Below are positions 171 through 44,700 of a stretch of 64,000 nt of DNA, piece by piece; the first letter of the stretch is position 1, and every line of letters starts with the position of its first letter. This DNA is from an uncultured Actinomycetes bacterium. GTDB lineage: Bacteria > Actinomycetota > Actinomycetes > Streptosporangiales > Streptosporangiaceae. The notes under the pieces were generated by a model. That model was not told where the DNA came from and did not search any database. It saw only the letters and a program-made list of their open reading frames with translations. The DNA lies in NCBI GenBank assembly GCA_963755815.1, contig CAVWLF010000001.1:1-64000 (forward strand). Direction: 5' to 3'. The translations under genes were made by a program, and so were the position numbers.

Positions 171-244
171 GCGGGCGTAGCTCAATGGTAGAGCCCCAGC
201 CTTCCAAGCTGGTCATGCCGGTTCGATCCCGGTCGCCCGCTCCA
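171..244 (+). tRNA. tRNA-Gly (anticodon UCC)
   Basis: 74-nt cloverleaf read by hand: acceptor GCGGGCG/CGCCCGC, D-arm GCTC-AATGGTA-GAGC, anticodon arm CCAGC-CTTCCAA-GCTGG (TCC), T-arm GCCGG-TTCGATC-CCGGT, discriminator T plus encoded CCA. Confidence 0.9.
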
Positions 245-289: not shown

Positions 290-484
290 ATGTCACGACG
301 CGTTCCTCGTGCCCATGCCCGGTACGGTCAGCGATCATCAGGGATGAACTCGATCGGGGCGACATCAGCAAGCGGGCCGCCATTGAGGCAACGCCGGTCC
401 AGTCACTACAGGCATCTGGCCCGGGCGGGCACGACGCGGTGCCAGCCGGGCCAGAACGGGGTCGCTACAAGCTGCAGCTCGCCG

Positions 485-1114
485 TCACGATGTTCCGCCC
501 CTGAGGAAGATCGCAATGGTGCGGGGCTGCAGCGGAGTGGCGTGAGCAGTGCAGGTGTAAGAGCCCTTGTCGATGAGCGCGAAGTTGGTCTGCTCACCGT
601 TCGTCAGCTGGAAGTTACCGAAGCTCAGCTCCGTTCCGGCTGGCATTGCCGCGGGATTGATCGTGATGGTCCGAACGTAGCGGGTCCGCGGGATGGACAC
701 GACGTGCAAGAGACCGGCCGGGGCCGGGTCGGAGGAGCAAAAGCTGCCCACCGTGACCTTGGCGGAGATGCCGTCTCGCGCGAGGTCGCGTTGCAGGGTG
801 CCGGGCTCGAGGAGCACCTTCGGCTTGATGGTCAGCGTGGCCGTGCCGTTGGCGTTGCTGACCAGCGTGAAGGCCGCGGTTTGGATCGTGCTTGTGCCGT
901 GCACCGGTGCGGAGCTGGCCAGGCCAACGGCCAGCACCGCGGTCACCGCCACCGTCCCGGTTCCGGCCAGGCCAATGAGCCTGCGGCGCCTGCGTGTTGT
1001 CCGGCCCTGCCGCACGATGGTATCCAGCGGCGTGCTCATCCGAACCTCGGAGAGGGAGTCCTTGGCCGTGGTGAGAGAGTCCTGGACGGTGCCGAGCGCG
1101 CTGTCGTCGTTCAT
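485..1114 (-). CDS. putative membrane-anchored anti-sigma factor / hypothetical protein co-transcribed with ECF sigma
   Basis: 209-aa ORF. Its ATG overlaps the upstream sigma stop (ATGA at 1111-1114). Arg-rich segment followed by one hydrophobic helix (LIGLAGTGTVAVTAVLAVGLA), then an extracytoplasmic domain. This is the typical sigma/anti-sigma arrangement. Confidence 0.6.
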   Translation of the reverse strand: MNDDSALGTVQDSLTTAKDSLSEVRMSTPLDTIVRQGRTTRRRRRLIGLAGTGTVAVTAVLAVGLASSAPVHGTSTIQTAAFTLVSNANGTATLTIKPKVLLEPGTLQRDLARDGISAKVTVGSFCSSDPAPAGLLHVVSIPRTRYVRTITINPAAMPAGTELSFGNFQLTNGEQTNFALIDKGSYTCTAHATPLQPRTIAIFLRGGTS

Positions 1115-1623
1115 TTCCGTATCTCCTGATCATCGTGATGCGGGATCGCGGATCGCAGCGTCGCTACCGCTTTGTGCAGGTGGGCGCTGACGGTCCCGGG
1201 GGCAATGCCTAGGAGCTTGGCCGTGGTCTCGGTGTCCAGGTCGAGCAGCAGCCGCAGGGTGACGACCTCGCGCTGACGCAACGGCAGCCGGCGAAGCGCG
1301 GCTACCAGCTCGCCGCTCATCACAGAGTCCTGATCTGCCGGAATCGCGCTGTCGTGGCTGCCCAGGGCGACCTCGCGCCGGTGGCGCCGCCACCGGGACA
1401 CGTTCACGTTCAGCGCCGCGCGCACCACCCAGGCCCGCGGCGCCTGCAGGTCGCGCACCTTCCGCCATGCCATCCACGCCCGGGCGAACCCCTCCGCGAC
1501 CAGTTCCTCGGCAAGCAGCCGGTCACCGACGTTGAGCAGCACGATCCGCAGGCAGTCATCACGGGCGGACTCGTAGAACTCGGCGAACTCCATCGACGTT
1601 TGCTCCACACCCCATACACGCAT
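1111..1623 (-). CDS. ECF-type RNA polymerase sigma-70 family factor
   Basis: 170-aa ORF with a region-2-like segment (LAEELVAEGFARAWMAW) and a region-4 HTH (LPLRQREVVTLRLLLDLDTETTAKLLGIAPGTVSAHLHKA). The true start may be the internal MEFAEFY (1593). Confidence 0.85.
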   Translation of the reverse strand: MRVWGVEQTSMEFAEFYESARDDCLRIVLLNVGDRLLAEELVAEGFARAWMAWRKVRDLQAPRAWVVRAALNVNVSRWRRHRREVALGSHDSAIPADQDSVMSGELVAALRRLPLRQREVVTLRLLLDLDTETTAKLLGIAPGTVSAHLHKAVATLRSAIPHHDDQEIRK

Positions 1624-9054: not shown

Positions 9055-9885
9055 CTAGAGATCGACGGTGCCGGAGATGCAGGTAACGGTCGAGCCGCCG
9101 ACCCAGACCGCGCCGTCGGGGCCGCTGGTGATGCGCACCTGCCCGTTCCGGCCGAGGACGGTGCCCTGCCGGGCCAGGTACGGGGCCTGCGCGCGGCCGG
9201 TGGCCAGCAGCCACTGCGCCAGCGAGGCGTTAAGGCTGCCCGTGACCGGATCCTCGGCCGTGCCGCCGTCGCTGGCGGTGAAGGCCCGCACCTCGAACGC
9301 GGCCGGTCCGCCGGGCGGGTGCGGCCCGGCGACGCCGATCTCGAGGTCGGTCGCGCCGGGCCGGAGCGCGAGCACGGCGTCGGCGCTGGCCAGCAGCACG
9401 GCGATCCAGCCGGGTCCGTTGTCCGCCCACTGCAGGTCGACGATTTCCTCGCGGCCGATCCGGAGGATGTCAGCGATGCGCTGCGCCAGCGGCTCGTCCA
9501 CCGGGCCGCTGCGCAACAGCGGGGGCGCGGCGAAGGCCAGCCCGCCGTCATCCTGGCGGATCGTGATCAGGCCTGCTTCGCACTGCTGCACCACAACGCC
9601 GGCCCGGCGGGGCTGGCCGCCAGCCTCCAGCCAGGCGTGACACGTGCCAAGCGTCGGGTGCCCGGCGAATGGCAGCTCCCGGCTGGCCGTGAAGATCCGC
9701 ACCTGGTAGTCCGCGCTGTCATCGTCAGGCACCAGCAGGAACGTGGTCTCAGACAGGTTCGTCCAGTTAGCGAAGCGCTGCATCTGCTCAGTCGTCAGCC
9801 CGTCCGCGCCGAACACGACGGCGAGCGCGTTGCCCCGATAGGGAGTTGAGGTAAAGACGTCGACCTGGCGAAACTGTCGCAACAT
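9055..9885 (-). CDS. PhzF-family isomerase
   Basis: 276 aa. N-terminus FRQVDVFTSTPYRGNALAVV, plus FAGHPTLG and two-domain PhzF architecture. Confidence 0.85.
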   Translation of the reverse strand: MLRQFRQVDVFTSTPYRGNALAVVFGADGLTTEQMQRFANWTNLSETTFLLVPDDDSADYQVRIFTASRELPFAGHPTLGTCHAWLEAGGQPRRAGVVVQQCEAGLITIRQDDGGLAFAAPPLLRSGPVDEPLAQRIADILRIGREEIVDLQWADNGPGWIAVLLASADAVLALRPGATDLEIGVAGPHPPGGPAAFEVRAFTASDGGTAEDPVTGSLNASLAQWLLATGRAQAPYLARQGTVLGRNGQVRITSGPDGAVWVGGSTVTCISGTVDL

Positions 9886-9966
9886 GATTCGATTCTGGCA
9901 TCCGCGCCCGGAGGCGAGGGCGTCACCGGCCGGTATCCGCCAACGGCAGGCCGAAGACCTCCGTCA

Positions 9967-10479
9967 CTACGCGGGCACGGCCAGGCGCTGCATCCATAGC
10001 GAGCTGATGTACTGACCATCCTTAACCGCGTACTCGCAGAACGTGCCCACCTCGGTAAAGCCGAACTTCCGGTGCAACGCGACCGACGCGTCGTTGGGCA
10101 GGGCGATGCCGGCCAGGGCGACATGAATCTTCTCGCCCGCCAGGCAGCTGAACAGCTCGCGGTAGAGCGCGGTCCCAGCGCCCTGCCCCCGGCAGCCGGC
10201 CTGCAGCGCGATGGTGACTTCGATGGTTTCCGAGAAGGCCTCGTGCCGCCGGTAGCGCTGGCTGCCGGCGTAGCCCATGACCTGGCCGTCACGCCGGGCC
10301 ACGAAGAGCCGGTAGCAGCCGGCCGGGGAGAACTGCCCGAACCAATCGCGCCGGTCAGCCACGCTGACCGGCCGGGTGCCGAAGTTGGCGATCGAGTTCG
10401 CCGCCGTGTAGTTGAAGATCTCCACGATTCCGGGCAGGTCAGCTTCGACCGCAGGCGCGATCCGCACGGGCGTCATCAT
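9967..10479 (-). CDS. GNAT acetyltransferase, phosphinothricin-N-acetyltransferase-like
   Basis: 170 aa. VEADLPGIVEIFNY...NFGTRPVSVADRRDWF...CRGQGAGTALYRELF...HRKFGFTEVG matches the PAT/Bar-like subfamily pattern. The start overlaps the stop of the upstream peptidase. Confidence 0.85.
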   Translation of the reverse strand: MMTPVRIAPAVEADLPGIVEIFNYTAANSIANFGTRPVSVADRRDWFGQFSPAGCYRLFVARRDGQVMGYAGSQRYRRHEAFSETIEVTIALQAGCRGQGAGTALYRELFSCLAGEKIHVALAGIALPNDASVALHRKFGFTEVGTFCEYAVKDGQYISSLWMQRLAVPA

Positions 10480-12416
10480 GCTTGCCCTTCCGCCGGATCA
10501 GCGAGCCACCGGTCGAACCACGCGCGGGCCCGCCGGAGCAGGTCGAGCTGATGATTGCGTTCCGCCAGCCCGTGACCCTCCCTCGGGTAGACGACAAGCT
10601 CATGCTCGGCCCCGAACCAGCTGAGCGCGCGGTGGAAGTAGATGGCCTGGCCGAGCGGCACGTTCGTGTCATCCTCGCCGTGCACGATCAGCACCGGGGT
10701 ACGGACCTTCGAGGCGAACGAGATCGGGCTGACCTGGTCGTGCGGGTGCGGGCCGGTGCCCTCCCAGCCGCAGCTGCCGCCGTACTCTGCCTCCAGGGTG
10801 CCATTTTCGCCGGTCGCGACGAGCATCCCCCAGTCGCTGATCCCGGCGCTCATCAGCGCGGCCCCGAACCGGCCGGTCTGCCCGATCGCCCACGCGGTCA
10901 TGAACCCGCCGTGGCTGCCTCCCTCGATCCCGAGCCGGCCGGAGTCCGCGACCCCGTCCGCGATCAGCAGGTCGATCCCGCTGACGATGTCGGTCCACTC
11001 TTCGCCGCCGATCGAGCCGGTGATCGTCGCGGCGAAGTCGTTGCCATGGCCCTGCCCGCCCCGCGGGTTGGGCAGGAACACCGCGTAACCCGCGGCGGCC
11101 AGCCACTGCCCCGGGGCGTGCGCGTGCAGCATGAGCCGGTCGGACCACCGATAGTAGGGACCGCCGTGCACCATCGTGACCAGCGGAAACGGGCCGTCCG
11201 TCCGGCGCCGGCCAGGCGGCAGGATCAGCAGGCCGTCCAGGCCGAGTCCGTCGGACGCGGTGTAGGAGAGGCGCTCCTGAGTCCCCCAGCTGATCTGGCG
11301 CAGCTCCGGGCTGGTGTCGCTGACCCGGACGAGCCGGCCGCCGGGCGGCCCGGCCTGAACGTCGGCCGGCTCGTACGACGTGGTCACCAGCACGGCGACC
11401 CGCTCACCCGAGCGGCTCACGGTCAGCGAGGCGGCGTCGCCGGCCAGAACCGACACCCGGTCGAAGCGCCGCAGGCCGGCGTCGAGCCGGTAGATCGCGG
11501 TATCGAGCCCGTCGGCGAACAGCGCCAGCGGCGGGCCGGCCGATACCTGCGCCAGGCCGAGCGGGCAGACGGTCATGCCCTCGGTCAGATTGACCTGCTT
11601 CCCGGCGGCACCGGCAGCGGGCACCGGGACGTCGAAGACGGCAAAGCCGCCATTCGGCCCGGGCATCGCCAGGTAGCTCAGGTGCCAGCCGCCATCGGCA
11701 TTCCACCAGGCCAGCGAGTGCGCCTCCGCTGCGATCTGGCCGAGATCGCGGACCGCGCCGGTCTCCGGATCGATCACGTGCAGCTCGTTAGTAGACATGC
11801 CGGGATCGATCTCCGGCGAGACCCAGCTGATCACCGCCAGCGGGCCGCCGTCCGGCCGCTGCGTCACCTCGGCCACGTGCCGGTCGCCGAGCCCGTCCAC
11901 CACGCGCAGCTCCCGGGTGGCCAGATCGAGCAGCCGCAGCCGCTCGCGGGGGAACTGTTCTCCCCAGACGAACGCGTCGTCGAATTCGGCGCGCCTGCGC
12001 TCCTCCTGCTCGGTCGGCTCGTCCGTCGCGACCACGGCCGCCAGCCGGGCGCCCGCGAGCGGGCAGGCATCGGAGATCGCGCCACGCCAGCTGGTCAGAG
12101 CCTGGGCCTCGCCGCCGTCAAGCGGGATCCCGTGCAGCTGGACGGAGCCGGCCCGGTCCGACCGGAAGAACAGCGACGCCGAGTCCGGTGCCCAGCGCGG
12201 GCCGGAGTCCGCCGCCGTACCGGCGGTCAGCTGCCGCGCCGGTGCGCTCCCGTCCGCGGCGGCGACCCAGAGCGCGCTGAGACGGCGCTCCCCCCGCCGG
12301 CCGACCGGGGCGACCACGTAGGCGACCCAGCGCCCGTCCGGTGAGATCACCGGCTGCAGCGCCGTGGCCCGGTCCACGATGAGCTCCGCGGTCAGTTCCG
12401 GTGTCTCCTCGCTCAT
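10476..12416 (-). CDS. S9 family serine peptidase (prolyl oligopeptidase / acylaminoacyl peptidase-like)
   Basis: N-terminal beta-propeller-like region (PRWAPDS, repeated WW/G motifs). C-terminal alpha/beta hydrolase with the nucleophile elbow GGSHGGF and HGEDDTNVP. Start at MSEETPEL (ATG 12416). Confidence 0.9.
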   Translation of the reverse strand: MSEETPELTAELIVDRATALQPVISPDGRWVAYVVAPVGRRGERRLSALWVAAADGSAPARQLTAGTAADSGPRWAPDSASLFFRSDRAGSVQLHGIPLDGGEAQALTSWRGAISDACPLAGARLAAVVATDEPTEQEERRRAEFDDAFVWGEQFPRERLRLLDLATRELRVVDGLGDRHVAEVTQRPDGGPLAVISWVSPEIDPGMSTNELHVIDPETGAVRDLGQIAAEAHSLAWWNADGGWHLSYLAMPGPNGGFAVFDVPVPAAGAAGKQVNLTEGMTVCPLGLAQVSAGPPLALFADGLDTAIYRLDAGLRRFDRVSVLAGDAASLTVSRSGERVAVLVTTSYEPADVQAGPPGGRLVRVSDTSPELRQISWGTQERLSYTASDGLGLDGLLILPPGRRRTDGPFPLVTMVHGGPYYRWSDRLMLHAHAPGQWLAAAGYAVFLPNPRGGQGHGNDFAATITGSIGGEEWTDIVSGIDLLIADGVADSGRLGIEGGSHGGFMTAWAIGQTGRFGAALMSAGISDWGMLVATGENGTLEAEYGGSCGWEGTGPHPHDQVSPISFASKVRTPVLIVHGEDDTNVPLGQAIYFHRALSWFGAEHELVVYPREGHGLAERNHQLDLLRRARAWFDRWLADPAEGQA

Positions 12417-12660
12417 GCAACGCGTCCTTTCGCCGACCGTGGGTACCAGCCACATCCTGCCGTAGCGGAGAGAACCTTCCGCGCCGCTGCGGCAAGCTCA
12501 GCGCGGGGCCCGGCCTGAGCCAGTGGGATGCGGTCCGAGGGAATCCGCCAGCGCCCGCGGCGCCTGGCCGCGCCAGGCATCCGTGATCAGTTCCGCGAGC
12601 AGTGTAGGCACCAGCCGGAGCATCGCCGGCCGGCAGCGGGCTGCCGATAATTTTTAACGG

Positions 12661-12855
12661 ATGGCCCGGCGTCGGTCGCCCGGCCCGGCGACCCCGCCCC
12701 GCGGGAGTGCCATCCCGGCCCGGGCAGGTTGACCTCCAGCGCACGTGAGGTACGACGATGGTCCGGCGCCGGTCGCCCGGCCAGGCGGCCCGCCCCGCGG
12801 GAGTGCCGTCGCGGCCCGGGCAGGTTGACCTCCAGTGCACATGAGGTACGACGAT
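12661..12855. repeat. tandem duplication, 97 + 96 bp (third unit starts at 12854), covering the 5' region of the MFS gene
   Basis: Unit 1 is 12661-12757 and unit 2 is 12758-12853. Both start ATGG(C/T)CCGGCG and end CAGGTTGACCTCCAG(C/T)GCAC(G/A)TGAGGTACGACG. The next copy begins ATGGGCCG. Confidence 0.85.
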
Positions 12856-12861
12856 GGGCCG

Positions 12862-14088
12862 ATGGCAGCGGCGGCGGGTGATGCCGGGGAGTGGTCGTAC
12901 TGGCGCGCACTGCGCAGCGGCCGGCTGGGTGCGCTGCTGGCCGGCAACCTGATCTCCAGCGCCGGTAACGGCATGATCATCAGTGCCCTGCCGCTGCTGA
13001 CCCTGCAGATCCGCGGCGGAATTCCGGCCGGACTGGCCATCGCGCTGGTCCAGGCGTCGCCGTACATCCTGGCCAGCGTGCTGGCCCTGACGCTGGGCCT
13101 GTCCCGGCTGCGGATCCCGCCGCGGGCACTGCTCATCTGGGACAGCATGCTGCGGAGTGCCACGTTTATCCTGCTCGGCACGCTCGCGGTGACCGGGACG
13201 CTCACCTTGTGGATGCTGGTGGGCGGGCTGCTGGCCGGATCGGTCTTCCAGATCGCCTCGAACAGCAGCCGGCGGCTGCTGGCCACCGGGATGACCGGCG
13301 CCGCTGGCCAGTTCGCGGTCAACGGGCTGCTGGGGACGAGCAGCAGCGTGGCCGCCTACGCGGTGGGCCCGGTCCTCGGCGGCATCGTGGCGACGGCGGC
13401 CAGCCCGGGCGTGGCGCTGATCGTCGACGGGCTCACCTTCGTGCCGATGCTCGGCGCCGTCTGCTTCGCGGTCTCCGCCACGTCCCGGCCGGCGCGCGGT
13501 CGTTTTGCTCCGGAGTCCGGCCTGCGCATCATGCGTGCCGTCCCGCCCGCGGCGCGGCTGTTCGTGGTGGTGTTCTGCTTCAACCTGTTCTACATGCCGG
13601 TCGAGGTCGCGCTGCCGCTGCTGGTGCACGGGCAGTTGCACGGCAGCGGAACGGCGCTCGGCCTGATCTGGTCCGGGTTCGGGGCCGGGGCGCTGCTCGG
13701 CGGGATGGGCACGTTGCTGCTGCGCCGGGTCCGGAGGCAGCGCGTGCTGGTCACGATCATCGGGGCGTGGGCCGCGGCGGTGCTGCTGCTCGCGTTCTCG
13801 CCGGCCGTGATCTTCGCGGTGGGGGCGTTCTTTCTCGGCGGGCTCATCTACGCGCCGTTCACGCCGATCGCCTATACCTACGTTCAGTCCATGCTGACGC
13901 CCGATGAGCAGCAGCCGGTCATCACCCTGTGGGCGGCGGGCGCCGTGCTCGCCGCGCCGGTCGGCCTCGCCCTGGCCGGGCCGCTGGTCAGCGCCGCGGG
14001 GGCCAGGAACGCCATGATCATCTCGGCATTGCTGACGGTCGCGCTCGTGCCCCTGGCCGCCGGCAGCCTGCGCCGGGCCCGACCATAG
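12862..14088 (+). CDS. MFS transporter
   Basis: About 12 hydrophobic segments and MFS-like loop motifs. The start is ambiguous (ATG 12835, 12841 or 12862) because the 5' end lies in the tandem duplication. Confidence 0.8.
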   Translation: MAAAAGDAGEWSYWRALRSGRLGALLAGNLISSAGNGMIISALPLLTLQIRGGIPAGLAIALVQASPYILASVLALTLGLSRLRIPPRALLIWDSMLRSATFILLGTLAVTGTLTLWMLVGGLLAGSVFQIASNSSRRLLATGMTGAAGQFAVNGLLGTSSSVAAYAVGPVLGGIVATAASPGVALIVDGLTFVPMLGAVCFAVSATSRPARGRFAPESGLRIMRAVPPAARLFVVVFCFNLFYMPVEVALPLLVHGQLHGSGTALGLIWSGFGAGALLGGMGTLLLRRVRRQRVLVTIIGAWAAAVLLLAFSPAVIFAVGAFFLGGLIYAPFTPIAYTYVQSMLTPDEQQPVITLWAAGAVLAAPVGLALAGPLVSAAGARNAMIISALLTVALVPLAAGSLRRARP

Positions 14089-14245: not shown

Positions 14246-14653
14246 ATGCGCGACGGCCGCTGGGAAGTGGCATCCGGCGACGCCGACTTCGGCCCGTACC
14301 TCGCTGGCCAGCCGGCCGCGAGCGCTGAGATGTTCCTGCGCTTCATCGAGATGGCCCGGGCCTGCGGGCCGGTCACCTTCGAGCTGCAGAACGGACGCGT
14401 CGTCCTGCGCGGAACCCGCCGGATCTTCGCCTCCGTCCGCGCCAGCAAGCAGGGGCTGGACGGGCATATCAATCTCGCGCGCAGCGTCGCCGATCGCCGG
14501 TTCCGCAAGGTCGAGATGCTGACCAAACGCCTGTACTTCCACCGTTACGCCGTCACCTCCCTCTCCGAGCTGGACGAGGAGTTCGGGCGGTGGCTGTGCG
14601 AGGCCCGCGCGATCGGAGACGGGAGCCATCTGACGGACTCGGACGTGACGTGA
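14246..14653 (+). CDS. DUF5655-like hypothetical protein
   Basis: The 135-aa ORF has balanced composition (FLRFIEMARACGPVTFELQNGRVVLRG...RLYFHRYAVTSLSELDEEF). The antisense ORF 14018-14680 is Pro/Gly/Ala-rich and judged spurious. Confidence 0.6.
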   Translation: MRDGRWEVASGDADFGPYLAGQPAASAEMFLRFIEMARACGPVTFELQNGRVVLRGTRRIFASVRASKQGLDGHINLARSVADRRFRKVEMLTKRLYFHRYAVTSLSELDEEFGRWLCEARAIGDGSHLTDSDVT

Positions 14654-14723
14654 TCTCCTTCGAGTTACGTCCGGCCGCACCCGCCGACCGCGAATTATGC
14701 CGGCGGCAGGCCGGAGGCCGCCG

Positions 14724-15227
14724 TCAGGCGAGGTACTTACGGAAGATCACCCCGTGCCGCGCGTAGCCCATCCGGTCCTCGTAGAAGGGCACCGACAGCG
14801 GGCTGCGCAGGTTGGTATCCAGGGCGACCAGAACCGCGCCGCCGGATCGTCCCCACTGCTCGACGGCCGCCATCAGGGCCGTGCCCACGCCGGCCCGCCG
14901 GTACCTTTCGGCCACCATCAGCGCGTTGACGTAGACGCGCGGGCTGGCTGCCGCGCGGGTCAGCTGCCACTGCGCACCGGGTACCGGAGGCTCAAATACC
15001 GCCACCACGAATCCGGCTACCTGCTCGTCGACGGTGGCGACCAGCCGCAGCACGGTCTGGCTGCCGTCGGCGTGGTCCTGCTCGAACCAGCCGGCCAGGC
15101 CTGCCTCCGCGGGCAGCTGGAAGTTCGCCGGGTCCAGCTCGACGTAATAACGGGCCGCATCGAGCCAGGCCCGGGCACAACCCGCTCCGTCACCCGGCTG
15201 GATTCCGCGAACCTTCACCTCGGCCAT
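14724..15227 (-). CDS. GNAT family N-acetyltransferase
   Basis: YRRAGVGTALMAAVEQW acetyl-CoA motif. Start at MAEVKVRGIQPGD (ATG 15227). Confidence 0.8.
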   Translation of the reverse strand: MAEVKVRGIQPGDGAGCARAWLDAARYYVELDPANFQLPAEAGLAGWFEQDHADGSQTVLRLVATVDEQVAGFVVAVFEPPVPGAQWQLTRAAASPRVYVNALMVAERYRRAGVGTALMAAVEQWGRSGGAVLVALDTNLRSPLSVPFYEDRMGYARHGVIFRKYLA

Positions 15228-15447
15228 TGACAATCCCCCTCCCCGGCACCGTATCTCTGGCTGCCGCATGCCTGGCGGCGCCGCGACCTGCTGTCGCTTT
15301 CTGGCAACCTCGGAATTGCGTTCCGCATGGTGGATATGGTCGATTGGTGTTGCCAGGGCAACAGCAAGGCGCCATCGATCAGGAGGAATGCTCCCCGCAC
15401 ACCGGCCGGCCGGGCGGGCTGGGGCGCATTGGCGGGGCTGGAGAGGT

Positions 15448-16755
15448 TCATGGCTGGTCGGCGTCCACGCAGATCAGGGCCCAGGGCCGGTCCTGGACCC
15501 GGGTCATCACCAGGGTCGCCCGGCGGGATCCGGAAAGCTTGAGGCGCCGGTGCAACTGGTCCACATCGCCGGCCAGTCCGCGGCGCCGGATGTCGACCGC
15601 GCCGATATCGAGTGCGCGCAGCCGGGCCGGGAGCTGCTTCTGGTTCCACGGGGCGGAGTCGATGACCCGCAGCCCTCGCCCGAACGGGGTACGCAGCGGC
15701 ACGTCAGCGGACAGGAAGGCGATCTGATCATCGATCTTCCAGGCGCCTAGCCCGCGCGCCAGTTCCGCCACCAGGCTGGCGCGGGTGACGGCCGGGTTGG
15801 GGTCGAGCAGGAACTCGCCGGGCATCCGGACCTCCACCGGCGGCCCGGGCTCGGGAACCAGGGTGTGACCGCCGGGCAGGAGGGTGGCGCGGGTGGCGCG
15901 GCCGGCTCCGGCGGCCGGCCTGGGGGCCGTCGCGAGCGCCGGAGACCAGGCGACCGCCTCTTTCAGCGCGCGGCCGATGGCGATGAACTCCAGCTCCCAG
16001 CCGGGCGGCACCGCCTCATGCGGCAGGCCGGGCGCGGCCTTGATGCCGACCGCCTCGACCCGCTCAGCCAGGCCGAGGCACCACGCCAGCGGTGGTTCGC
16101 TCTGGCCGGCCCGGAGCCGCCGGCCGCCGGCCCGCCGGGCGGGATCGACGAAGATCGCGTCCAGGCCGGCCAGGCTGACCTCCCGGACGTCGCCCTGCAC
16201 CGGTGTCAGGTTCCCGGCGACGCCGCAGACCTCGGCATTGGCCCGGGCGACGCGCAACTGCAGCGGGTCGCGGTCAACGGCGAGCACCTGACGGCTCCCG
16301 GCCGGCCCGCGGAGATCCTCGCCCGGCACCCGGTGGTCCTCGGCCGACGCGCGGAGATCCCCGGCCCGTACCCGGGGATCGTCGGCCGGCATGCAGGGGG
16401 CCTCGGCTAGGACGATGAGGTCGCCGCCGATCCCGCAGCACAGGTCCGCGACCCGGCCCGCGGCGCGGTAGCGGGCCGCCCGGTGCCGCGCCACTACCTC
16501 CGAGGACGCTTGCTCCAGGCCGGGCCGGGTGAAGAACATCTCCATGGCCCGGCTGAACTTGGCTCGCGCCAGCAGCCGCAGCTCATGCTGGGCCAGCGCT
16601 TCGGCCACGAGATCGGCCGGGTAACGCGAACGCAGCACCGTGCCCAGCCGCAGCGGCGTGTCCGCGGCGGCCGCCTCGGTGGCGAGATGATCGAGTAGCT
16701 CCCGGCCGCGCGGGGCCAGCAGGGACTCGAATCGCTCCACGCTTGCGTCAGCCAT
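15448..16755 (-). CDS. class I SAM-dependent methyltransferase with THUMP-like C-terminal region
   Basis: SAM motif I VADLCCGIGGDLIVLAE and a conserved C-terminal block (VTRASLVAELARGLGAWKIDDQIAFLSAD). It contains a low-complexity insertion (DDPRVRAGDLRASAEDHRVPGEDLRGP). Confidence 0.75.
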   Translation of the reverse strand: MADASVERFESLLAPRGRELLDHLATEAAAADTPLRLGTVLRSRYPADLVAEALAQHELRLLARAKFSRAMEMFFTRPGLEQASSEVVARHRAARYRAAGRVADLCCGIGGDLIVLAEAPCMPADDPRVRAGDLRASAEDHRVPGEDLRGPAGSRQVLAVDRDPLQLRVARANAEVCGVAGNLTPVQGDVREVSLAGLDAIFVDPARRAGGRRLRAGQSEPPLAWCLGLAERVEAVGIKAAPGLPHEAVPPGWELEFIAIGRALKEAVAWSPALATAPRPAAGAGRATRATLLPGGHTLVPEPGPPVEVRMPGEFLLDPNPAVTRASLVAELARGLGAWKIDDQIAFLSADVPLRTPFGRGLRVIDSAPWNQKQLPARLRALDIGAVDIRRRGLAGDVDQLHRRLKLSGSRRATLVMTRVQDRPWALICVDADQP

Positions 16756-16864
16756 GTCCTCTTCCCCGGGCGGGCCGGGCATAGGCCCCGGCCGCAGCGC
16801 GGCGAGGCAGCAACAGCCAGGCCGGCGGGCGGCCCGTGCTACAAAATGCTATGAGCGAGATGCG

Positions 16865-28663: not shown

Positions 28664-28721
28664 CGCGGTGGCGCCGCAGCGGCGGCACGCTGCCCGGCGC
28701 CATCGCGGGCTGGAACCATCG

Positions 28722-28846
28722 GCACGATCGCGGATCACAACTACCAGCACGATCACAGATCAGAACCACCAGCACCGCCGCGGGTCAGAGCTCCGGGCAC
28801 GATCACGGATCAGAGCTACCGGCACGATCGCGGATGAGAACTTGCG
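28722..28846. repeat. 5 x 25-bp perfect-phase tandem repeat immediately upstream of the ABC ATPase start
   Basis: Units start at 28722, 28747, 28772, 28797 and 28822. Consensus GCACGATC(G/A)C(G/A)GATCA(G/C)A(A/G)C(T/C)ACC(A/G). Unit 3 is degenerate. The period is not a multiple of 3. The array ends 10 nt before ATG 28857. Confidence 0.9.
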
Positions 28847-28856
28847 GAGGGACGGC

Positions 28857-30143
28857 ATGTCCACGGTGACAGCCGAAGGGCTGACCAAGGTCTACGCGGG
28901 TGGCGTCGAGGCAGTCAACGACCTTGACCTGCAGGTCGACGACGGAGAGTTCGTCGTGCTCGTCGGGCCGTCCGGGTGCGGCAAGACCACGGCGCTGCGC
29001 ATGGTAGCGGGGCTGGAGGAGATCACATCGGGCACGCTGCGGCTCGGTGACCGGGTGGTTAACGATCTCTCGCCGCGCGAGCGTGACGTCGCCATGGTCT
29101 TCCAGAACTACGCGCTTTACCCGCATCTGAGCGTGCACGAGAACATCGGCTTCGCGTTGCATAGCAGGAAGGTTGCTAAGGTCGAGCGGGACTCGAAGGT
29201 GCGCGCCGCGGCGGCCGTGCTCGGCCTGACCGGGGAACTCGATCGCAAGCCGCGGCAGCTCTCGGGCGGTCAGCGGCAGCGCGTCGCGATGGGCCGGGCG
29301 CTCGTGCGCGAGCCCTCGGTCTTCCTGATGGACGAGCCGCTGTCCAACCTCGACGCCAAGCTGCGGATCCAGATGCGCTCGGAGGTGCTGCGGGTGCACC
29401 GGCGGATCGGGGTCGCGACGCTGTATGTCACGCACGATCAGACCGAGGCCATGACGATGGGCGACCGCGTCGCCGTGCTCCGCTCCGGAACGCTCCAGCA
29501 ATGCTCGGCGCCCAGGGAGCTTTACGACTCGCCGGCGAACATCTTCGTGGCTACGTTCATCGGCTCGCCATCGATGAACCTCTACCGGGCCGGCCTCGAA
29601 TCCGCCGGCGAATCCGGCACCATCGTGCTCGGTTCGCAGCGGCTGACGCTCCCGGCCGCGGTCATGCGGCAGAACCCTGGCCTCGCCCGTTACCAGGGCC
29701 GCGCAGTCATCGCCGGGATCCGGCCTGAGCACCTGGTCGACCAGGCGATACTCGGCACCGCGCCAGAGCCGGGCGCGAGTCTCACCGCGACGGTCGACCT
29801 CGTCGAGGTCCTCGGCAGCGAGCAGCTTGTCCACTTCACCATCGACGCGCCCGGGGTTCGCGGGGAAATGGAAGAGCAGGACCAGTCCTTGGCCGGAGCC
29901 GCGCCCGGGCCCGGGACCGGGACCGGAGCCGGGCCCGGGACCGGAGCCGGAGCCGGGACTGGGGAGGGCGAGATCGTCGCCGCGGCGGTAGCGGAGGGTG
30001 TGGCCAGGATCGACCCGCGCTCGGGGATCCGCGCCGGGGAAAGGGCGGTCTTCGGAGTGGACGTCCGGCGGATCCATTTCTTCGACCCGGACAGTGGAGT
30101 CGCGATCGCGCCGGCCAGCCCGACGACCAGCACTGCCCGCTGA
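28857..30143 (+). CDS. sugar ABC transporter ATP-binding protein (MalK/MsiK/UgpC-like)
   Basis: Walker A GPSGCGKTT, signature LSGGQRQRVAMGRAL, Walker B VFLMDEPLSNLD, and a C-terminal TOBE-like domain with a Gly/Pro/Thr low-complexity insertion. Start at MSTVTAEGLTKVY with GGAGGGA upstream. Confidence 0.9.
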   Translation: MSTVTAEGLTKVYAGGVEAVNDLDLQVDDGEFVVLVGPSGCGKTTALRMVAGLEEITSGTLRLGDRVVNDLSPRERDVAMVFQNYALYPHLSVHENIGFALHSRKVAKVERDSKVRAAAAVLGLTGELDRKPRQLSGGQRQRVAMGRALVREPSVFLMDEPLSNLDAKLRIQMRSEVLRVHRRIGVATLYVTHDQTEAMTMGDRVAVLRSGTLQQCSAPRELYDSPANIFVATFIGSPSMNLYRAGLESAGESGTIVLGSQRLTLPAAVMRQNPGLARYQGRAVIAGIRPEHLVDQAILGTAPEPGASLTATVDLVEVLGSEQLVHFTIDAPGVRGEMEEQDQSLAGAAPGPGTGTGAGPGTGAGAGTGEGEIVAAAVAEGVARIDPRSGIRAGERAVFGVDVRRIHFFDPDSGVAIAPASPTTSTAR

Positions 30144-30298
30144 CTGCTGGCACCGTCGCCCCGACTGCCAGCACCGCCCCGGACGGCTAGCACCGCTCGG
30201 ACTGCCACCTCGGCCCCGGATTGCCCCCCGCCCGGATTGCCAGCACTGGGCCGGATTGCCAGCACTGGCCCGGCCCGCCCCGGATTGCCAGCACCTCC
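30140..30298. repeat. degenerate ~19-nt tandem array (about 8 copies of CCCGGA(T/C)TGCCAGCAC)
   Basis: Copies read by eye from the ATPase stop codon onward. The three best are at 30231-30249, 30250-30268 and 30280-30298. Confidence 0.6.
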
Positions 30299-36501: not shown

Positions 36502-36684
36502 AGAACTCCGGCGGCTTATTCAGCTCGGCTCGCAGCCGGGCGAAAGCCATTAGCCGGTATTTGCCTGAATATAACTAATGACGGCGCTGTGCGGGACTAC
36601 GGCTATTGCCCGATACATGTACCAGTTAGCCGCGGACCAGGTAAGCTCGCGGAAAATCCTCCTGGCCGGACTGGACGGCGGCAG

Positions 36685-38240
36685 ATGCATCGGTGGACGT
36701 GGCTGGCCGGGACGGAGCGGCCGCAGGCGCACCGCCGGACCTGGCTGGCCCGGACGGGACAGCCGCAGGCGCACCGCCGGGCCTGGCTGGCCGGGACGGT
36801 AACCGCCGCCGCCGTGCTGTGCGTTACGTCGGTTGCCGCCTGCGCGGCTCCGCCGCCACGGCTGCTGCTCGGCGGGATCACCGCGGAGCGCTCGGCGCCG
36901 GACGGTATCAGGGCGTTGCCGCCGGACCCGTCATCCCCGGCCAGCTCCGCATCCCGGGACGGTTCCGCATCCCAGGGCGGCTCCGCGTCCGCGGCTGGTT
37001 CCGCATCCGCGGCCGGCCCCGCATCACCGGCCCGCACCGCGTCGCCGGCCGGACTCGCGCTCCCGTCCCTGGCCGGACCGCCGCATAGCGCGGCGCAGCG
37101 CTGGCTGGCGGCCGGCTCGGTGCCGGGCCGCACCCCGGCGCAGCGGCAGCTGGCCGAGGGCGCGCTCATCGACCTGCGGCTGCTTACCCGCCCGGACGGC
37201 GCGGTCGCCGCCGCCTGGTTCGGTCCGTGGAAGTTCGCCTGGCCGCGTGACTCCAGCTGGGTGGCCGCCGCGTTCGCCGCCACCGGCCATTCCGGCGACG
37301 CACTGCGCATCCTGCGCTTCCTCGCCCGGGTGCAGGGCCCGGCCGGCACCTGGGCCGCCAAGTACACGCTGGCGGGCGGGCCGGCCCCGGCCGGGCCAGG
37401 GGCCGAGCTCGATGCCAACGGCTGGTTTCCCTGGGCGGTCTGGATCTGGTACGCCGAGCAAGGCGGCCGGGCCGGGGCGCGGCGGGAACTGGCCGCCCTG
37501 TGGCCCGCCGTCCGCCGCGCGGCGGACGCCACCGCGGCGTCGCTGTCGGCCGGCGGGCTGCCACCGCCATCGCCGGACTACTGGGAACAGCCGGTCAGCC
37601 AGCCGACGATCGGTACCGCCGGCCCGCTGCTGGCCGGGCTGCGCGCCGCCGCCCGGCTGGCGGCCGGCCTCGGCGACGTCAGTGACGAGCGCCGCTGGGC
37701 ATCCTCCGCGGCGCGGCTTGACCGGGGAATCCAGGCTGCGTTTGGCCCGGAATTCAATCGGTTCCCGAACTCGGCCGGGGGCACTGGCACCTGGCTGGCC
37801 CTCTTCGGTACCGGCCCCGGCCCGGCCCATGACGGCCTTTCGGCCGACTCGGTGCTGAACGGGCCCGATGCCGCGGTGACCTTTCTCGGCCCGCCATTCG
37901 GCCGGCCAGCGCGGCGGTCAGCGCGGCGGTCGCGCGCGCGGCCCGGGTCCTGACGCTGCCGGACGGCGGCATCCTGCCCGGCACTACCTGGCGGGGCGAC
38001 CGCACCGTCGCCTGGACGCCGGCGACCGGTTTCTTCGCGCTTTACGACGCGGCCACCGGCCACCGGGCCGCGGCGGCCGGCTGGCTGGACTGGCTGGCCG
38101 CGCATCGCACCGCGGACGGGGCGCTGCCCGAGCAGGTCAACGCCAGCGGGCAGCCGGTGTCGGTCGCCCCGCTCGGCTGGACGTGCGCCATTGTGCTGCT
38201 GGCGCTCACCGCGATGCGGCACCCGCTGCCGGTCCCGTGA
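36685..38240 (+). pseudogene. glycoside hydrolase family 15-like (glucoamylase-related) lipoprotein gene with a frameshift near 37905
   Basis: Lipobox-like LCVTSVAAC, and GH15-like blocks WPRDSSWVAAAFAATGH and DYWEQ. Frame 1 ends at 37953 in Arg-rich sequence. The authentic-looking C-terminus (AAVSAAVARAARVLTLPDGGILPGTTW...LGWTCAIVLLAL) continues in another frame to the stop at 38240. Confidence 0.6.
36698..36810. repeat. 42-bp tandem repeat (about 2.7 copies) inside the N-terminal coding region of the GH15-like gene
   Basis: Units are at 36698-36739, 36740-36781 and 36782-36810 (partial). They encode (W/T)WLAGT(E/G)(R/Q)PQAHRR repeats in frame. Confidence 0.7.
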
Positions 38241-42544: not shown

Positions 42545-44700
42545 CCACGCCGGCCGCCACGGTCGAGCCGGCCCGGTCAGCGGCCGTCTCCGGTCCCGCC
42601 TCGCGGGAATCGATCACGCTCTGATCGGCCGCTTTCATCGCCGGGCAGCGCCGCCCGCGCGGTATACCCGCACGCCGCCCGCGCGGTATACCTTCACGCC
42701 GCCCGCACGGTGTACCTTCACGCCGTCCGGCCGGTATACCTTCACGCCGTCCGCGATGTAGCCGAGCCGGAAGCCGGTCTCGTGCAGATAGCGGATGGCC
42801 GGCCGGGTCCGGCCGTGCCATCTCCAGACCAGCACCCAGCCGATGTCCAGGTGGCGCGCGTCCAGCCGGGCGGCCGCCAGCTGCGCCGGGGTGATCTGCT
42901 GGCCGTGCTGGACGGCCACCAGCTCGGCGAAGAAGGCGTGCTTCCTGGCCGCGGCTACGGTCGGGGCCGGTACCCGGGACAGGAAGCCCACCGCGCGCGG
43001 ATGCCCGTCGGCAGTCGCCAGCACCTGCGCCTCCGGATCGAACTGGTCACCGTAGGCGCCAGTTCCGCCCCGGAGGCCGTACGGGATATCAACCACGAGT
43101 GACCCGGAATGGTCCGCGGCGATCGGCCGGTCGATGGCCGGCGGCTGGTGGCGATGGACCCAATGCCAGGATTGCCGGACCAGCCGGCTTCCAGCATTCC
43201 GAGCGCCAGTACGACGACGATGGCGGGGGCTGCGTGGTAGCGCAGCCAGTTCACCGCCGCGCCGGCCAGCAGGGCGGCGGGCACCATGCCCAGCATCAGG
43301 ATCCGGGCCGGCTCCCGGAAGCCGGACAGCCCGGGGATGCGGACGAACCAGGTGTACGGCATCACCGCGGACACCCGCACGCCGTCCAGGGTGGTGGCGT
43401 CCGGGACGAAGATATGGTTGCCGACCCGGATTACGGGGCCAAGGGCCATGACCGCGCAGCCGAGCCAGAGCAGTGCCAGCAGCCACGCGCTGCGCCGCCG
43501 CCAGGCGGCCAGCAGGCCAGCCACCGCCAGGACGCTCAGCACCAGGCCGTAGGTGGGGATCCCGTCGCCGATCCGGCCGCCGTAGATGAACCCCGGCGGG
43601 CCGTGCAGCCCGAACGCGGTCACTCGCGGGGAGAGCTCGAACATCCGGGGGAAGATGACGTCGTTCCCGAGATACGACCCGCCGAGGACGAGCTTCGGGA
43701 TAGTGGCGCCGCCGGATCTGGTCTGCTGGGCGATGGCGATGAGCTGCGGGCTGGCGACCAGCAAGGTCACCAGCCCGGCCAGCGCGGCCGGCCACAGCTT
43801 CGCCACCACCGGACGCCGCACCAGCCACGGCACCAGCGCCGCGCACGCCAAGATGACCACCAGCACGGCCATCTCCTGATCAGTCAGCAGCGCCCCGCCG
43901 GCCACCACCCCCAGGACCACCGCCCGCCGCCACCCCGGCCGCCGCGTCAGCCGCACCGCGGCCTCCAGCGCCAGCGGCAAGAACAACGCCCCCGCGGCCA
44001 GGTTCAGGTGATACCAGGACCGCCACGTCAGCATCGACGACAACCCGAAAAACGCCCCCGCCGCGATCGCGCCCACCTGCGAGGGCAGCCACAACCGCGC
44101 CACCCGGTACATCGCATAACACAGCAACCCCGGCATCACCACCGACAGCAGGTTGTACGACGCACTCGGCCCGAACACCACCGTCACCGGCATCATCACC
44201 ACGCCCGGCAGCGGCATCAGCGCATGCAACCCCAGCTGAGCCCCCGCCGGAGCATCGATATAACGGGTAAACCACGGATTACCCAGATGCTCCACCTGCC
44301 GCGCAACCCACCAGAACCCCCACACGTAACTACCCGCATCACGCGTCGCCGGCAACCGGCCCGCCAGATACGTCACCCGCGGCCAGCTCACCGCCATCCC
44401 CGCCGCCACAAACCCAGCCAGCACCCCCAGCTGAACCGCCACCGGACCACGAACCACCCGGAAAACCCGCCACCACCCGAACCCGCCCGGCCCGCCACCC
44501 CGCGGCCCGGCATCCGGCCCCCCGACCGGAGCCCTGACCGCCGCACCCACGCCGGGCGGCCGCACCTCAGCCGGCCGCACACCGGCCGGCGTTACCGGCG
44601 AGCTAGCCGCCGGACCCGGCCCGCTCAGTGCGGCCGGCCCGGGACCACCCGCCGCCACGGCCGAGCCGGCCCGGTCAATGGTCTGTGCCGGGCCGGAGGC
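40721..44700. repeat. about 2.02-kb tandem duplication (two gene-length units)
   Basis: Offset is 2021-2022 bp. The ORF track shows identical translated runs of 262 aa and identical 131-aa ORFs (41859-42254 = 43880-44275). This gives an identical block 41687-42472 = 43708-44493, flanked by visibly diverged sequence. Confidence 0.9.

Follow-up and report, generated by a model that had tools for sequence, protein, structure and literature searches.

The region examined lies between a divergently oriented gene of the S9 prolyl-oligopeptidase family and an MFS transporter gene (Table 1), both located in the window, i.e. the entire 64-kb stretch of DNA that was analysed. The protein encoded by the latter gene exceeds the cut-offs of the Pfam models MFS_1 (63 bits) and MFS_3 (40 bits); its best NCBIfam matches (TIGR00900 H+ antiporter, Tap and EntS) all remain below the equivalog/subfamily cut-offs. 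Judged by these matches, the product is an MFS exporter of the MFS_3/DHA3-like, EntS/Tap-like type. The gene callers of three other assemblies pick the same ATG (12862) that the first-pass annotation had proposed as the transporter start. Directly upstream of this codon, Tandem Repeats Finder (TRF) identified an array (12660–12861; period 96, 2.1 copies, 90% matches, score 334), which is the top-ranking tandem repeat of the whole window. The G+C content of the host is 71%.

Table 1. Features of the duplicated region upstream of the MFS exporter gene (window coordinates).
Feature	Position	Strand	Description	Basis
S9 prolyl-oligopeptidase-family gene	10476..12416	-	Divergent (context)	
Hairpin CGGCAGCGGGCTGCCG and AT-rich island GATAATTTTTAACG	12631..12659	+	5' edge of the duplicated segment, itself single	
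Repeat unit 1, distal copy	12660..12756	+	97 nt: ~65 nt GC-rich spacer, then promoter P1	TRF, direct-repeat search, unit alignment
P1 -35 TTGACC	12729..12734	+		Anchored alignments
P1 SoxR-type box CCTCCAGCGCACGTGAGG (predicted)	12733..12750	+		Consensus match, alignments
P1 -10 GACGAT	12754..12759	+	19 nt past the -35	Alignment A3
Repeat unit 2, proximal copy	12757..12852	+	96 nt: spacer, then promoter P2	TRF, direct-repeat search, unit alignment
P2 -35 TTGACC	12825..12830	+		Anchored alignments
P2 SoxR-type box CCTCCAGTGCACATGAGG (predicted)	12829..12846	+		Consensus match, alignments
P2 -10 GACGAT	12850..12855	+	Overlaps the out-of-frame ATG at 12854	Anchored alignments
GATGG microhomology	12853..12857	+	Probable junction of the duplication; the pentamer also opens unit 1 (12660-12664) and unit 2 (12757-12761)	Read from sequence
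MFS exporter gene	12862..14088	+	408 aa	Pfam MFS_1/MFS_3

Alignment of the two units revealed eight substitutions and one 1-nt indel, the latter within a C-run. The same 601-bp stretch, containing both diverged units, was retrieved from one Logan and two ENA assemblies, while a 98% relative (ENA and JGI samples) was found to possess two units as well. Tandem repeats are prone to mis-assembly, and it had previously been suggested that a single unit might have been falsely expanded at this position; the probability of such an artefact is vanishingly small, as the nine differences between the units allow reads to be placed without ambiguity, the identical two-unit sequence was obtained from three assemblies generated by different pipelines, and a diverged two-unit allele occurs in two further samples. 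The duplication is real and not an assembly artefact, and the original description of a tandem duplication of the 5' regulatory region of the MFS gene is borne out by TRF, the unit alignment and the independent assemblies. Two full units and the start of a third had been reported: the two units were confirmed, but the supposed third is limited to GATGG(G)CCG and thus to the microhomology of 5 nt.

Each unit carries TTGACC, a 19-nt spacer with the palindrome CCTCCAG-N4-CRTGAGG, and GACGAT. The TTGACC hexamers are present where they had been annotated and represent plausible -35 elements, and the view that promoter modules were duplicated proved essentially right, with P1 and P2 each possessing a -35, a 19-nt spacer and a -10. 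In both units the box is situated between the -35 and the -10 and overlaps the -35, a register that is constant in all 12 aligned promoters. Within this alignment (A3, 12 sequences) the invariant positions are TTG, the CTC...TGA arm cores, two bases within the -10 (A2 and T6) and the start-codon G. Orthologs of the MFS protein (L026, 85% identity; L012, 75%; L015, 73%; L020, 71%; L019, 70%; L028, 55%; L029, 51%) are preceded by unrelated upstream genes and have the promoter alone in common: TTGAC or TTGCC, a 19-nt spacer, NANNNT, a further 6–7 nt and then ATG or GTG, with a palindrome that is CCTCAAG-N4-CTTGAGG or a close variant thereof and is perfect in some of these loci. Conversely, MFS homologs of 56–57% identity from a genome-contig search (two Streptomyces and one MAG) are uninformative with regard to the repeat, since they are translationally coupled to the upstream gene and lack the box. 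Dyad complementarity amounts to 81% of positions in register, compared with 23–56% when the arms are slid out of register. Covariation within the dyad failed to reach significance: L019 provides the single compensatory pair, and 79 of 500 shuffles equalled this. The argument therefore rests on conservation, on agreement with the consensus from the literature and on the adjacency of soxR in L029 described below. A sigma-70 consensus scan found no promoter in the region because it was limited to spacers of 16–18 nt, a range that does not include the 19-nt MerR-type spacer.

The SoxR box of Escherichia coli is CCTCAAGTTAACTTGAGG (PMC4411124), and the Streptomyces SoxR consensus is CCTCRA-N6-TYGAGG with a 19-nt spacer (PMC8867992). 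Each box in the window agrees with the former at 12 of 14 arm bases and with the latter at 10 of 12, while the boxes of L015 and L029 match the Streptomyces consensus at all 12 positions. The deviations in the window affect the innermost arm positions (CCTCCAG, CRTGAGG), and SoxR binding to these predicted boxes could consequently be weakened or lost. The pattern TTGACCTCAAG-N4-CTTGAGG, allowing at most two mismatches, occurs at only these two sites in the 64-kb window, and the box pattern with the -35 included gave no match in 100 shuffles. We consider it likely that the repeated unit constitutes the full promoter-operator of the MFS exporter gene together with ~65 nt of upstream spacer, i.e. 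a MerR/SoxR-type promoter that has been duplicated in tandem and for which control by SoxR is proposed.

Neither the 64-kb window nor the loci of close relatives yielded a soxR or MerR-family gene in searches with a cysteine-motif regular expression and tblastn, so that SoxR as the regulator in the organism from which the window derives is an assumption. The tblastn query was E. coli SoxR, and among all loci searched the sole match (E = 1e-20) was in L029, where the divergent neighbour of the MFS gene begins 12 nt from a perfect box. The C-terminal end of this neighbour, CLACGCLSLATC, fits CX2CXCX5C. Among NCBIfam models the protein scores best with TIGR01950 SoxR (109.9 bits, where the cut-off is 116.9), the next MerR-family model reaching 57 bits. 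An unlikely alternative is that the same duplicated MerR-type promoter answers to another MerR-family regulator, for example a drug-binding activator resembling BmrR or TipA. The 19-nt spacer and dyad are generic to the MerR family (PMC8113463, PMC1526738), the boxes in the window are imperfect as SoxR boxes, a soxR gene is absent nearby, and the L029 neighbour falls slightly under the SoxR equivalog cut-off; all of this would be compatible with such a regulator. In contrast, the perfect agreement of the L015 and L029 boxes with the Streptomyces SoxR consensus, the margin of ~53 bits by which the SoxR model outscores all other MerR-family models for the L029 neighbour, and the SoxR-specific four-cysteine motif of this protein favour SoxR itself.

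The first-pass annotation had interpreted each unit as a promoter/leader module in which GAGG and a following ATG direct the synthesis of Arg-rich peptides, which would in turn attenuate or tune pump translation. The GAGG elements and the three ATGs (12661, 12758, 12854) were found as described, both mini-ORF translations were exact, and the ATG at 12854 is indeed out of frame with the transporter, 8 nt ahead of the ATG at 12862. The roles assigned to these elements did not hold: the GAGG taken for a Shine-Dalgarno element forms the right arm of a conserved palindrome (CCTC...GAGG) corresponding to the SoxR box, and the ATG read as a leader start 8 nt later consists of the last two bases of the -10 GACGAT plus a G. 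Such an ATG would be located upstream of the transcription start expected for its own promoter, as it overlaps the -10 hexamer; this applies to the ATGs at 12758 and 12854. For the first mini-ORF a leaderless arrangement is geometrically possible, since TAATTT (12648–12653) lies 7 nt before the ATG at 12661. That ATG-initiated ORFs are present with GAGG 7 nt before each ATG, and that a 28–29-aa ORF is retained in single-unit strains with one in-frame 3-nt indel, would agree with translated leaders, but the reading frames shift: units 1 and 2 encode 23 and 28 aa, respectively, in the window and 28 and 23 aa in L008, owing to 1-nt indels. Furthermore, L026 (85% identity) lacks a start codon at the homologous position, and L012 (75%) has no room for the ORF, its upstream gene ending ~30 nt before the box. 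In L019, where GAGG has become GAAG, the left arm has changed in mirror image, so that dyad symmetry rather than Shine-Dalgarno strength is kept.

Additionally, the mini-ORF peptides have no Pfam match, the predicted RNA fold of the P1 leader is no better than that of shuffled sequence (z = -1.1), and Rfam, searched with the region at permissive E-values and with the whole window, returned nothing relevant, the only hit being a tRNA at 171–241. Leader-peptide or uORF attenuators are recognised by a conserved ORF with its own RBS, coupled to RNA structures or to stalling; here the ORF is not conserved, its apparent RBS is a palindrome arm and the RNA fold is unremarkable, and attenuation of translation by leader peptides is very improbable. 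The mini-ORFs, the apparent Shine-Dalgarno elements and the ATGs are by-products of a G+C-rich sequence and of the promoter itself. We regard as at least equally improbable that the palindrome acts as RNA, i.e. as a hairpin in the 5' UTR that hides GAGG in the manner of a thermometer or attenuator, two such hairpins being stacked by the duplication. CCUCAAG-N4-CUUGAGG would form a 7-bp hairpin, L019 exhibits one compensatory change, and an ATG is located 7 nt past the palindrome in five lineages. However, L020 and L029 lack this ATG, which is out of the MFS frame in both the window and L026, the stem in the window contains two uncompensated internal mismatches, and the lack of an Rfam match and the fold score given above do not favour a structured RNA. 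The palindrome always abuts TTGAC in a fixed 19-nt register with NANNNT, which indicates a promoter constraint acting at the DNA level.

The transporter start is found 6 nt past the P2 -10; in eight diverged lineages an ATG or GTG with an invariant G is likewise located 6–7 nt past the -10. Given this short distance, we infer that the MFS mRNA originating from P2 has no leader or almost none. If the promoter works like the SoxR targets that have been characterised, a SoxR dimer would be bound to the palindrome, and oxidation of its [2Fe-2S] clusters by redox-active compounds would distort the spacer, allowing RNA polymerase to fire and thereby switching on the pump. P2, which would retain the leaderless layout of the ancestral copy, is probably the main promoter, while P1, with a predicted start at ~12765–12767, would generate a ~97-nt GC-rich leader reading through P2. 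P1 transcripts probably yield little pump, since the sole well-placed pair of an SD-like element and an ATG (GAGG, 7 nt, ATG 12854) is out of frame. The net effect would be one additional site for the regulator and one additional inducible start, i.e. two SoxR-box promoters 96 bp apart, and the duplication most likely causes a modest shift in inducible expression, or is near-neutral.

Comparable promoters have been described in other bacteria. The mfsA promoter of Stenotrophomonas maltophilia, which drives an MFS efflux pump, consists of TTGACC, a 19-bp spacer and CATGCT with an 18-bp box between the -35 and the -10 (PMC4411124), and its divergent soxR–MFS arrangement is shared with the ortholog L029. 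A leader of 39 nt precedes mfsA (PMC4411124), in contrast to the window with its 6 nt between the -10 and the start codon; furthermore, the window has no neighbouring soxR gene, its boxes are less perfect and it contains two tandem copies of the entire promoter. The Streptomyces SoxR regulon (S. coelicolor ecaA-D and SCO2478; S. avermitilis sav_7218) is similar with respect to its actinomycete host and the presence of transporters among its targets (PMC4146615, PMC8867992), and its promoters share the CCTCRA-N6-TYGAGG box overlapping the -35, the 19-nt spacer and a start ~6 nt from the start codon, as exemplified by sav_7218, where transcription starts 6 nt from the start codon (PMC8867992). 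The transporter target described there is an ABC transporter, whereas that in the window is of the MFS_3 type; moreover, the window boxes differ from the Streptomyces consensus in two of its 12 arm positions. The MerR, CueR and BmrR promoters have the over-long spacer of 19–20 bp, the dyad operator and the distortion of DNA by the activator in common with this one (PMC8113463, PMC7722741), but the half-sites in the window are SoxR-like and not of the metal- or drug-sensor type. A tandem-duplicated soxbox promoter was not encountered in the papers cited here, and a literature search for tandem duplications of bacterial efflux promoters retrieved nothing directly comparable.

The number of units varies between closely related strains. 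Two units are present in the window (identical in L001–3), L008 and L009, while L007, L011, L022 and L023, whose MFS proteins are 98%, 95%, 96% and 97% identical, respectively, possess one. The intergenic region between the S9 and MFS genes accordingly measures 445 nt in two-unit strains versus 348 nt in the single-unit L007. Unit 2 bears derived changes common to the window and L008/L009, and the single unit of L007 displays none of the unit 1- or unit 2-specific changes that the two-unit strains have in common. A secondary collapse of the duplication in L007 was therefore rejected and its unit taken as ancestral, in line with the expectation of the first-pass annotation that comparison with orthologous loci might reveal a single ancestral unit. 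In L007, L011 and L023 the single unit is flanked on both sides by GATGG, which in the window is found at 12660, 12757 and 12853; head-to-tail copies and a short direct repeat flanking the ancestral single copy are the signature of tandem duplication at a microhomology. It would thus appear that in one sub-lineage of this uncultured soil actinomycete a GATGG-bounded 96-nt segment was duplicated in tandem, with slippage or illegitimate recombination at GATGG as the likely mechanism. Both differences between the boxes of units 1 and 2 also occur as alleles among single-unit strains (the T and A variants of the P2 box are seen in L022/L023), which hints at an origin, or a later reshaping, of the duplication through recombination between diverged alleles. 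The hairpin and AT-rich island at the 5' edge are kept in all strains and are still recognisable in L026.

Both the kind of system and the kind of mutation are already known, and this is a fairly ordinary regulatory mutation. In the cyp51A promoter of Aspergillus fumigatus, the tandem repeats TR34 and TR46 duplicate transcription-factor sites and raise expression, with a proven effect on resistance. The similarity lies in the tandem duplication of a short promoter segment bound by a regulator, with polymorphism in natural populations; that case is eukaryotic and its effect on expression and resistance proven, whereas the present one is bacterial, involves the entire core promoter and may alter expression. 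What had plausibly appeared as stacked leader peptides with Shine-Dalgarno sites is likely a duplicated MerR/SoxR-type promoter, which, on comparative evidence, would place an uncharacterised actinomycete MFS exporter family in the SoxR (redox-active metabolite) regulon, and whose one-copy and two-copy forms segregate naturally. In the case that the extra copy alters induction, this would represent bacterial cis-regulatory evolution through promoter/operator duplication; otherwise it would be an ordinary near-neutral intergenic duplication. It seems doubtful that the allele with two units is adaptive, as a cis-regulatory variant that segregates in a population of soil actinomycetes in the wild. 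If it were, the operators, 96 bp (~9 helical turns) apart and on the same face of the DNA, might permit a stronger or stepwise redox induction, and the pump mRNA, leaderless from P2 and leadered from P1, would be a natural intermediate between the two gene organisations.

Two long ORFs (12587–12910 and 12654–13322) were also observed to run antisense across the repeat; these lack a Pfam match and were treated not as genes but as artefacts of the high G+C content.

Tandem Repeats Finder placed the top-scoring tandem repeat of the 64-kb window at 12660-12861 (period 96, 2.1 copies, 90% matches, score 334), bordering the ATG at 12862, the start codon of a 408-aa protein that matches Pfam MFS_1 and MFS_3. 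The distal unit 1 and the proximal unit 2 differ by eight substitutions and one 1-nt indel within a C-run (~9% divergence), and repeat detection and unit alignment together bear out the tandem duplication claimed in the first-pass annotation. The proposed start of a third unit is limited to a recurrence of GATGG at 12853, extending no further than GATGG(G)CCG. An assembly artefact is contradicted by public data: six contigs encode the exact MFS protein, and in all three that were compared (two in ENA assemblies, the third in a Logan assembly) the stretch with both diverged units is 100% identical. In the ENA assembly ERZ25039460 (L002), the S9 peptidase and methyltransferase gene calls are truncated or split relative to L001, probably through assembly indel errors, while the repeat region is identical.

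Positions of the repeat units, neighbouring genes and further features of the window
Feature	Coordinates	Strand	Remark
Unit 1	12660-12756		97 nt; phased on pentamer GATGG
Unit 2	12757-12852		96 nt; phased on pentamer GATGG
MFS gene	12862-14088	+	predicted exporter
S9 prolyl-oligopeptidase-family gene	10476-12416	-	divergent; 445-nt intergenic region to MFS gene
PhzF-like, GNAT acetyltransferase and S9 peptidase genes	9055-12416	-	upstream of pump
DUF5655, another GNAT and THUMP-like methyltransferase genes	14246-16782		downstream of pump
Tandem repeat	16299-16390		period 42 nt; within THUMP-like methyltransferase gene
Tandem repeat	30158-30273		period 19 nt
Tandem repeat	36662-36799		period 42 nt
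Tandem repeat	36932-37052		period 18 nt
Tandem repeat	42649-42755		period 24 nt
tRNA-Gly(TCC)	171-244		sole RNA gene in window by Rfam or ARAGORN

Two units are also present in the related loci L008 and L009 (98% MFS identity; one ENA and one JGI sample). A single unit, directly 3' of the conserved AATTTTTAACG, occurs in L007 (98%), L023 (97%), L022 (96%) and L011 (95%); the L010 locus is truncated and was of no use for counting units. The intergenic region between the S9 peptidase and MFS genes measures 348 nt in L007 versus 445 nt in the window. Derived changes private to each unit are common to the window and L008/L009, and none of these is found in L007, whose single unit is therefore ancestral; a collapsed duplication is ruled out on the same grounds. 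GATGG flanks the single unit at both ends, and a short repeat at both ends of a single copy is the usual signature of microhomology-mediated duplication, an ordinary mutation. The SoxR-type palindromes (boxes) of the two units differ by C/T in the centre and G/A in the right arm, and both variants are found as alleles in single-unit strains (C..G in L007, T..G in L010/L011 and T..A in L022/L023); inter-allele recombination may thus partly account for how far the units have diverged. Pairwise distances among the window, L007 and L008 are roughly equal (1.5% in coding sequence, 4-6% in non-repeated intergenic DNA). The window and L008 have the same sequence in both core promoters; the changes lie mostly in the upstream spacer and are too few for a claim of selection. 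Across the strains, the non-repeated intergenic part generally diverges fast, by 4-12% versus 1.5-3.6% in the MFS coding sequence, and a 22-nt insertion/deletion polymorphism involving L011 and L023 lies at ~12617 of the window.

Orthologs were compared at protein identities of 85% (L026), 75% (L012), 73% (L015), 71% (L020), 70% (L019), 55% (L028) and 51% (L029). The genes upstream of these (gamma-glutamyltranspeptidase, GntR-aminotransferase, EACC1 protein, soxR-like gene) are unlike those of the window, and the sole upstream element common to all is a promoter. It comprises a -35 hexamer (TTGACC, TTGACT or TTGCCC), which identifies the TTGACC of the first-pass annotation, a spacer of constant length (19 nt) that holds CCTCAAG-N4-CTTGAGG or a close variant, a -10 hexamer in which the second base is always A and the sixth always T (GACGAT, GAGGAT, CAGGAT, CACACT, GACGCT, AACGCT), and an ATG or GTG start 6-7 nt further 3'. 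Judged from sequence, SoxR-activated promoters are laid out in this way. The SoxR box of E. coli is CCTCAAGTTAACTTGAGG, and the S. maltophilia mfsA promoter, which drives an MFS pump, consists of TTGACC, 19 bp holding the box, and CATGCT (PMC4411124); the Streptomyces consensus is CCTCRA-N6-TYGAGG with a 19-nt spacer (PMC8867992). Actinomycetes and proteobacteria offer well-documented cases of SoxR boxes 5' of transporters, MFS pumps included (PMC4146615, PMC4411124, PMC8867992). The Streptomyces arm positions are matched 12/12 in L015 and L029 and 10/12 in each window box, with mismatches at the innermost arm positions. A window-wide search for TTGACCTCAAG-N4-CTTGAGG, two mismatches allowed, gives matches solely at 12729 and 12825 (0/100 shuffles), and no third TTGAC-anchored SoxR box was found. 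Dyad complementarity reaches 81% in register versus 23-56% out of register; covariation is not significant, with one compensatory change only (L019, CTTCAA/TTGAAG). The box is missing from the more distant family members L004-6, L027, L030, L031 and L033.

The first-pass annotation had read each unit as a promoter/leader module in which a Shine-Dalgarno-like GAGG precedes the ATG of an Arg-rich mini-ORF. The GAGG is instead the right arm of the conserved palindrome. The ATG noted 8 nt further on does exist, but it consists of the final AT of the -10 hexamer GACGAT and the G that follows, and therefore lies upstream of its own promoter's expected start. Relative to the real start, it is in frame in L012, L015 and L019 and out of frame in the window and in L026; L020 and L029 lack it. 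A start codon 6-7 nt 3' of the -10 is kept in all of them. This argues for a leaderless or near-leaderless mRNA beginning at 12862, the start codon also picked by gene callers in other assemblies; in sav_7218, 6 nt separate the transcription start from the start codon (PMC8867992). The mini-ORF translations were reproduced exactly, but a leader-peptide role is not borne out by conservation across strains or orthologs: 1-nt indels make the 23-aa and 28-aa ORFs trade places between units when the window is compared with L008, the position homologous to the mini-ORF ATG reads GAT in L026, and L012 has no space for such an ORF. Additionally, the mini-ORFs have no Pfam match, the repeat region has no Rfam match, and the predicted leader from P1, the unit 1 promoter, is no more stably folded than shuffled sequence (z = -1.1). 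A G-to-A change in the box right arm of unit 2 creates an in-frame ATG (12841-12843) seven codons 5' of the MFS start; it is used in one public gene call (P0002, 415 aa) and would be transcribed from P1 only.

No MerR-family gene was found in the 64-kb window or beside the close relatives' loci. In L029, a perfect box lies 12 nt from the start of the MFS ortholog's divergent neighbour, a gene with a match to E. coli SoxR (tblastn E = 1e-20). Among NCBIfam models, TIGR01950 SoxR scores highest for this gene, with 109.9 bits against a curated cut-off of 116.9 bits; the next MerR-family model scores 57 bits. The C-terminal CLACGCLSLATC of its product conforms to the CX2CXCX5C [2Fe-2S] motif. The same soxR-mfsA layout has been described for S. 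maltophilia. At the L029 locus (376-732 (-) and 1047-1439 (-)), the divergent pair adjoins a resolvase-like ORF (MALVGYARVSTRDQ...), a hint that the surroundings are mobile or prone to recombination.

By sequence comparison, the repeat holds two complete SoxR-type promoters 96 bp apart, of which P2, in unit 2, retains the ancestral -10-to-ATG geometry. SoxR would bind both boxes, its oxidised form activating transcription, and P2 would yield a leaderless pump mRNA. Transcripts from P1 would start at ~12765-12767 and run through P2, giving a leader of ~97 nt. Its best-placed Shine-Dalgarno-like/ATG pair would be GAGG, 7 nt and ATG 12854, out of frame with 12862 as the first-pass annotation stated, opening a 32-codon ORF that overlaps the MFS start; the in-frame ATG 12841 lacks a Shine-Dalgarno element. 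P1 transcripts probably contribute little pump protein, and the net effect of the duplication is likely a modest shift in inducible expression, or near-neutral. New here are the putative placement of a previously uncharacterised MFS_3-type family in the SoxR regulon, its apparent leaderless organisation, and the natural segregation of an entire MerR-type promoter as one-copy and two-copy alleles.

Directly 5' of unit 1, at 12631-12659 of this 71% G+C DNA, lie a terminator-like hairpin (CGGCAGCGGGCTGCCG) and, after it, an AT-rich island (GATAATTTTTAACG). The island is kept in all strains and is recognisable at 85% identity (L026: AATTTTGAAACGG); its TAATTT, 7 nt 5' of ATG 12661, could be a -10 element. 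Elsewhere, an intergenic gap holds roughly five direct copies of a ~25-nt unit (GCACGATCGCGGATCAGAACTACCA) at 28713-28842; their period is not a multiple of 3, and they may represent an operator array or leader; just 3', the ATG at 28878 opens a product that begins like an ABC-transporter ATPase. Some of the five further tandem repeats (16299-42755) are probably coding repeats.
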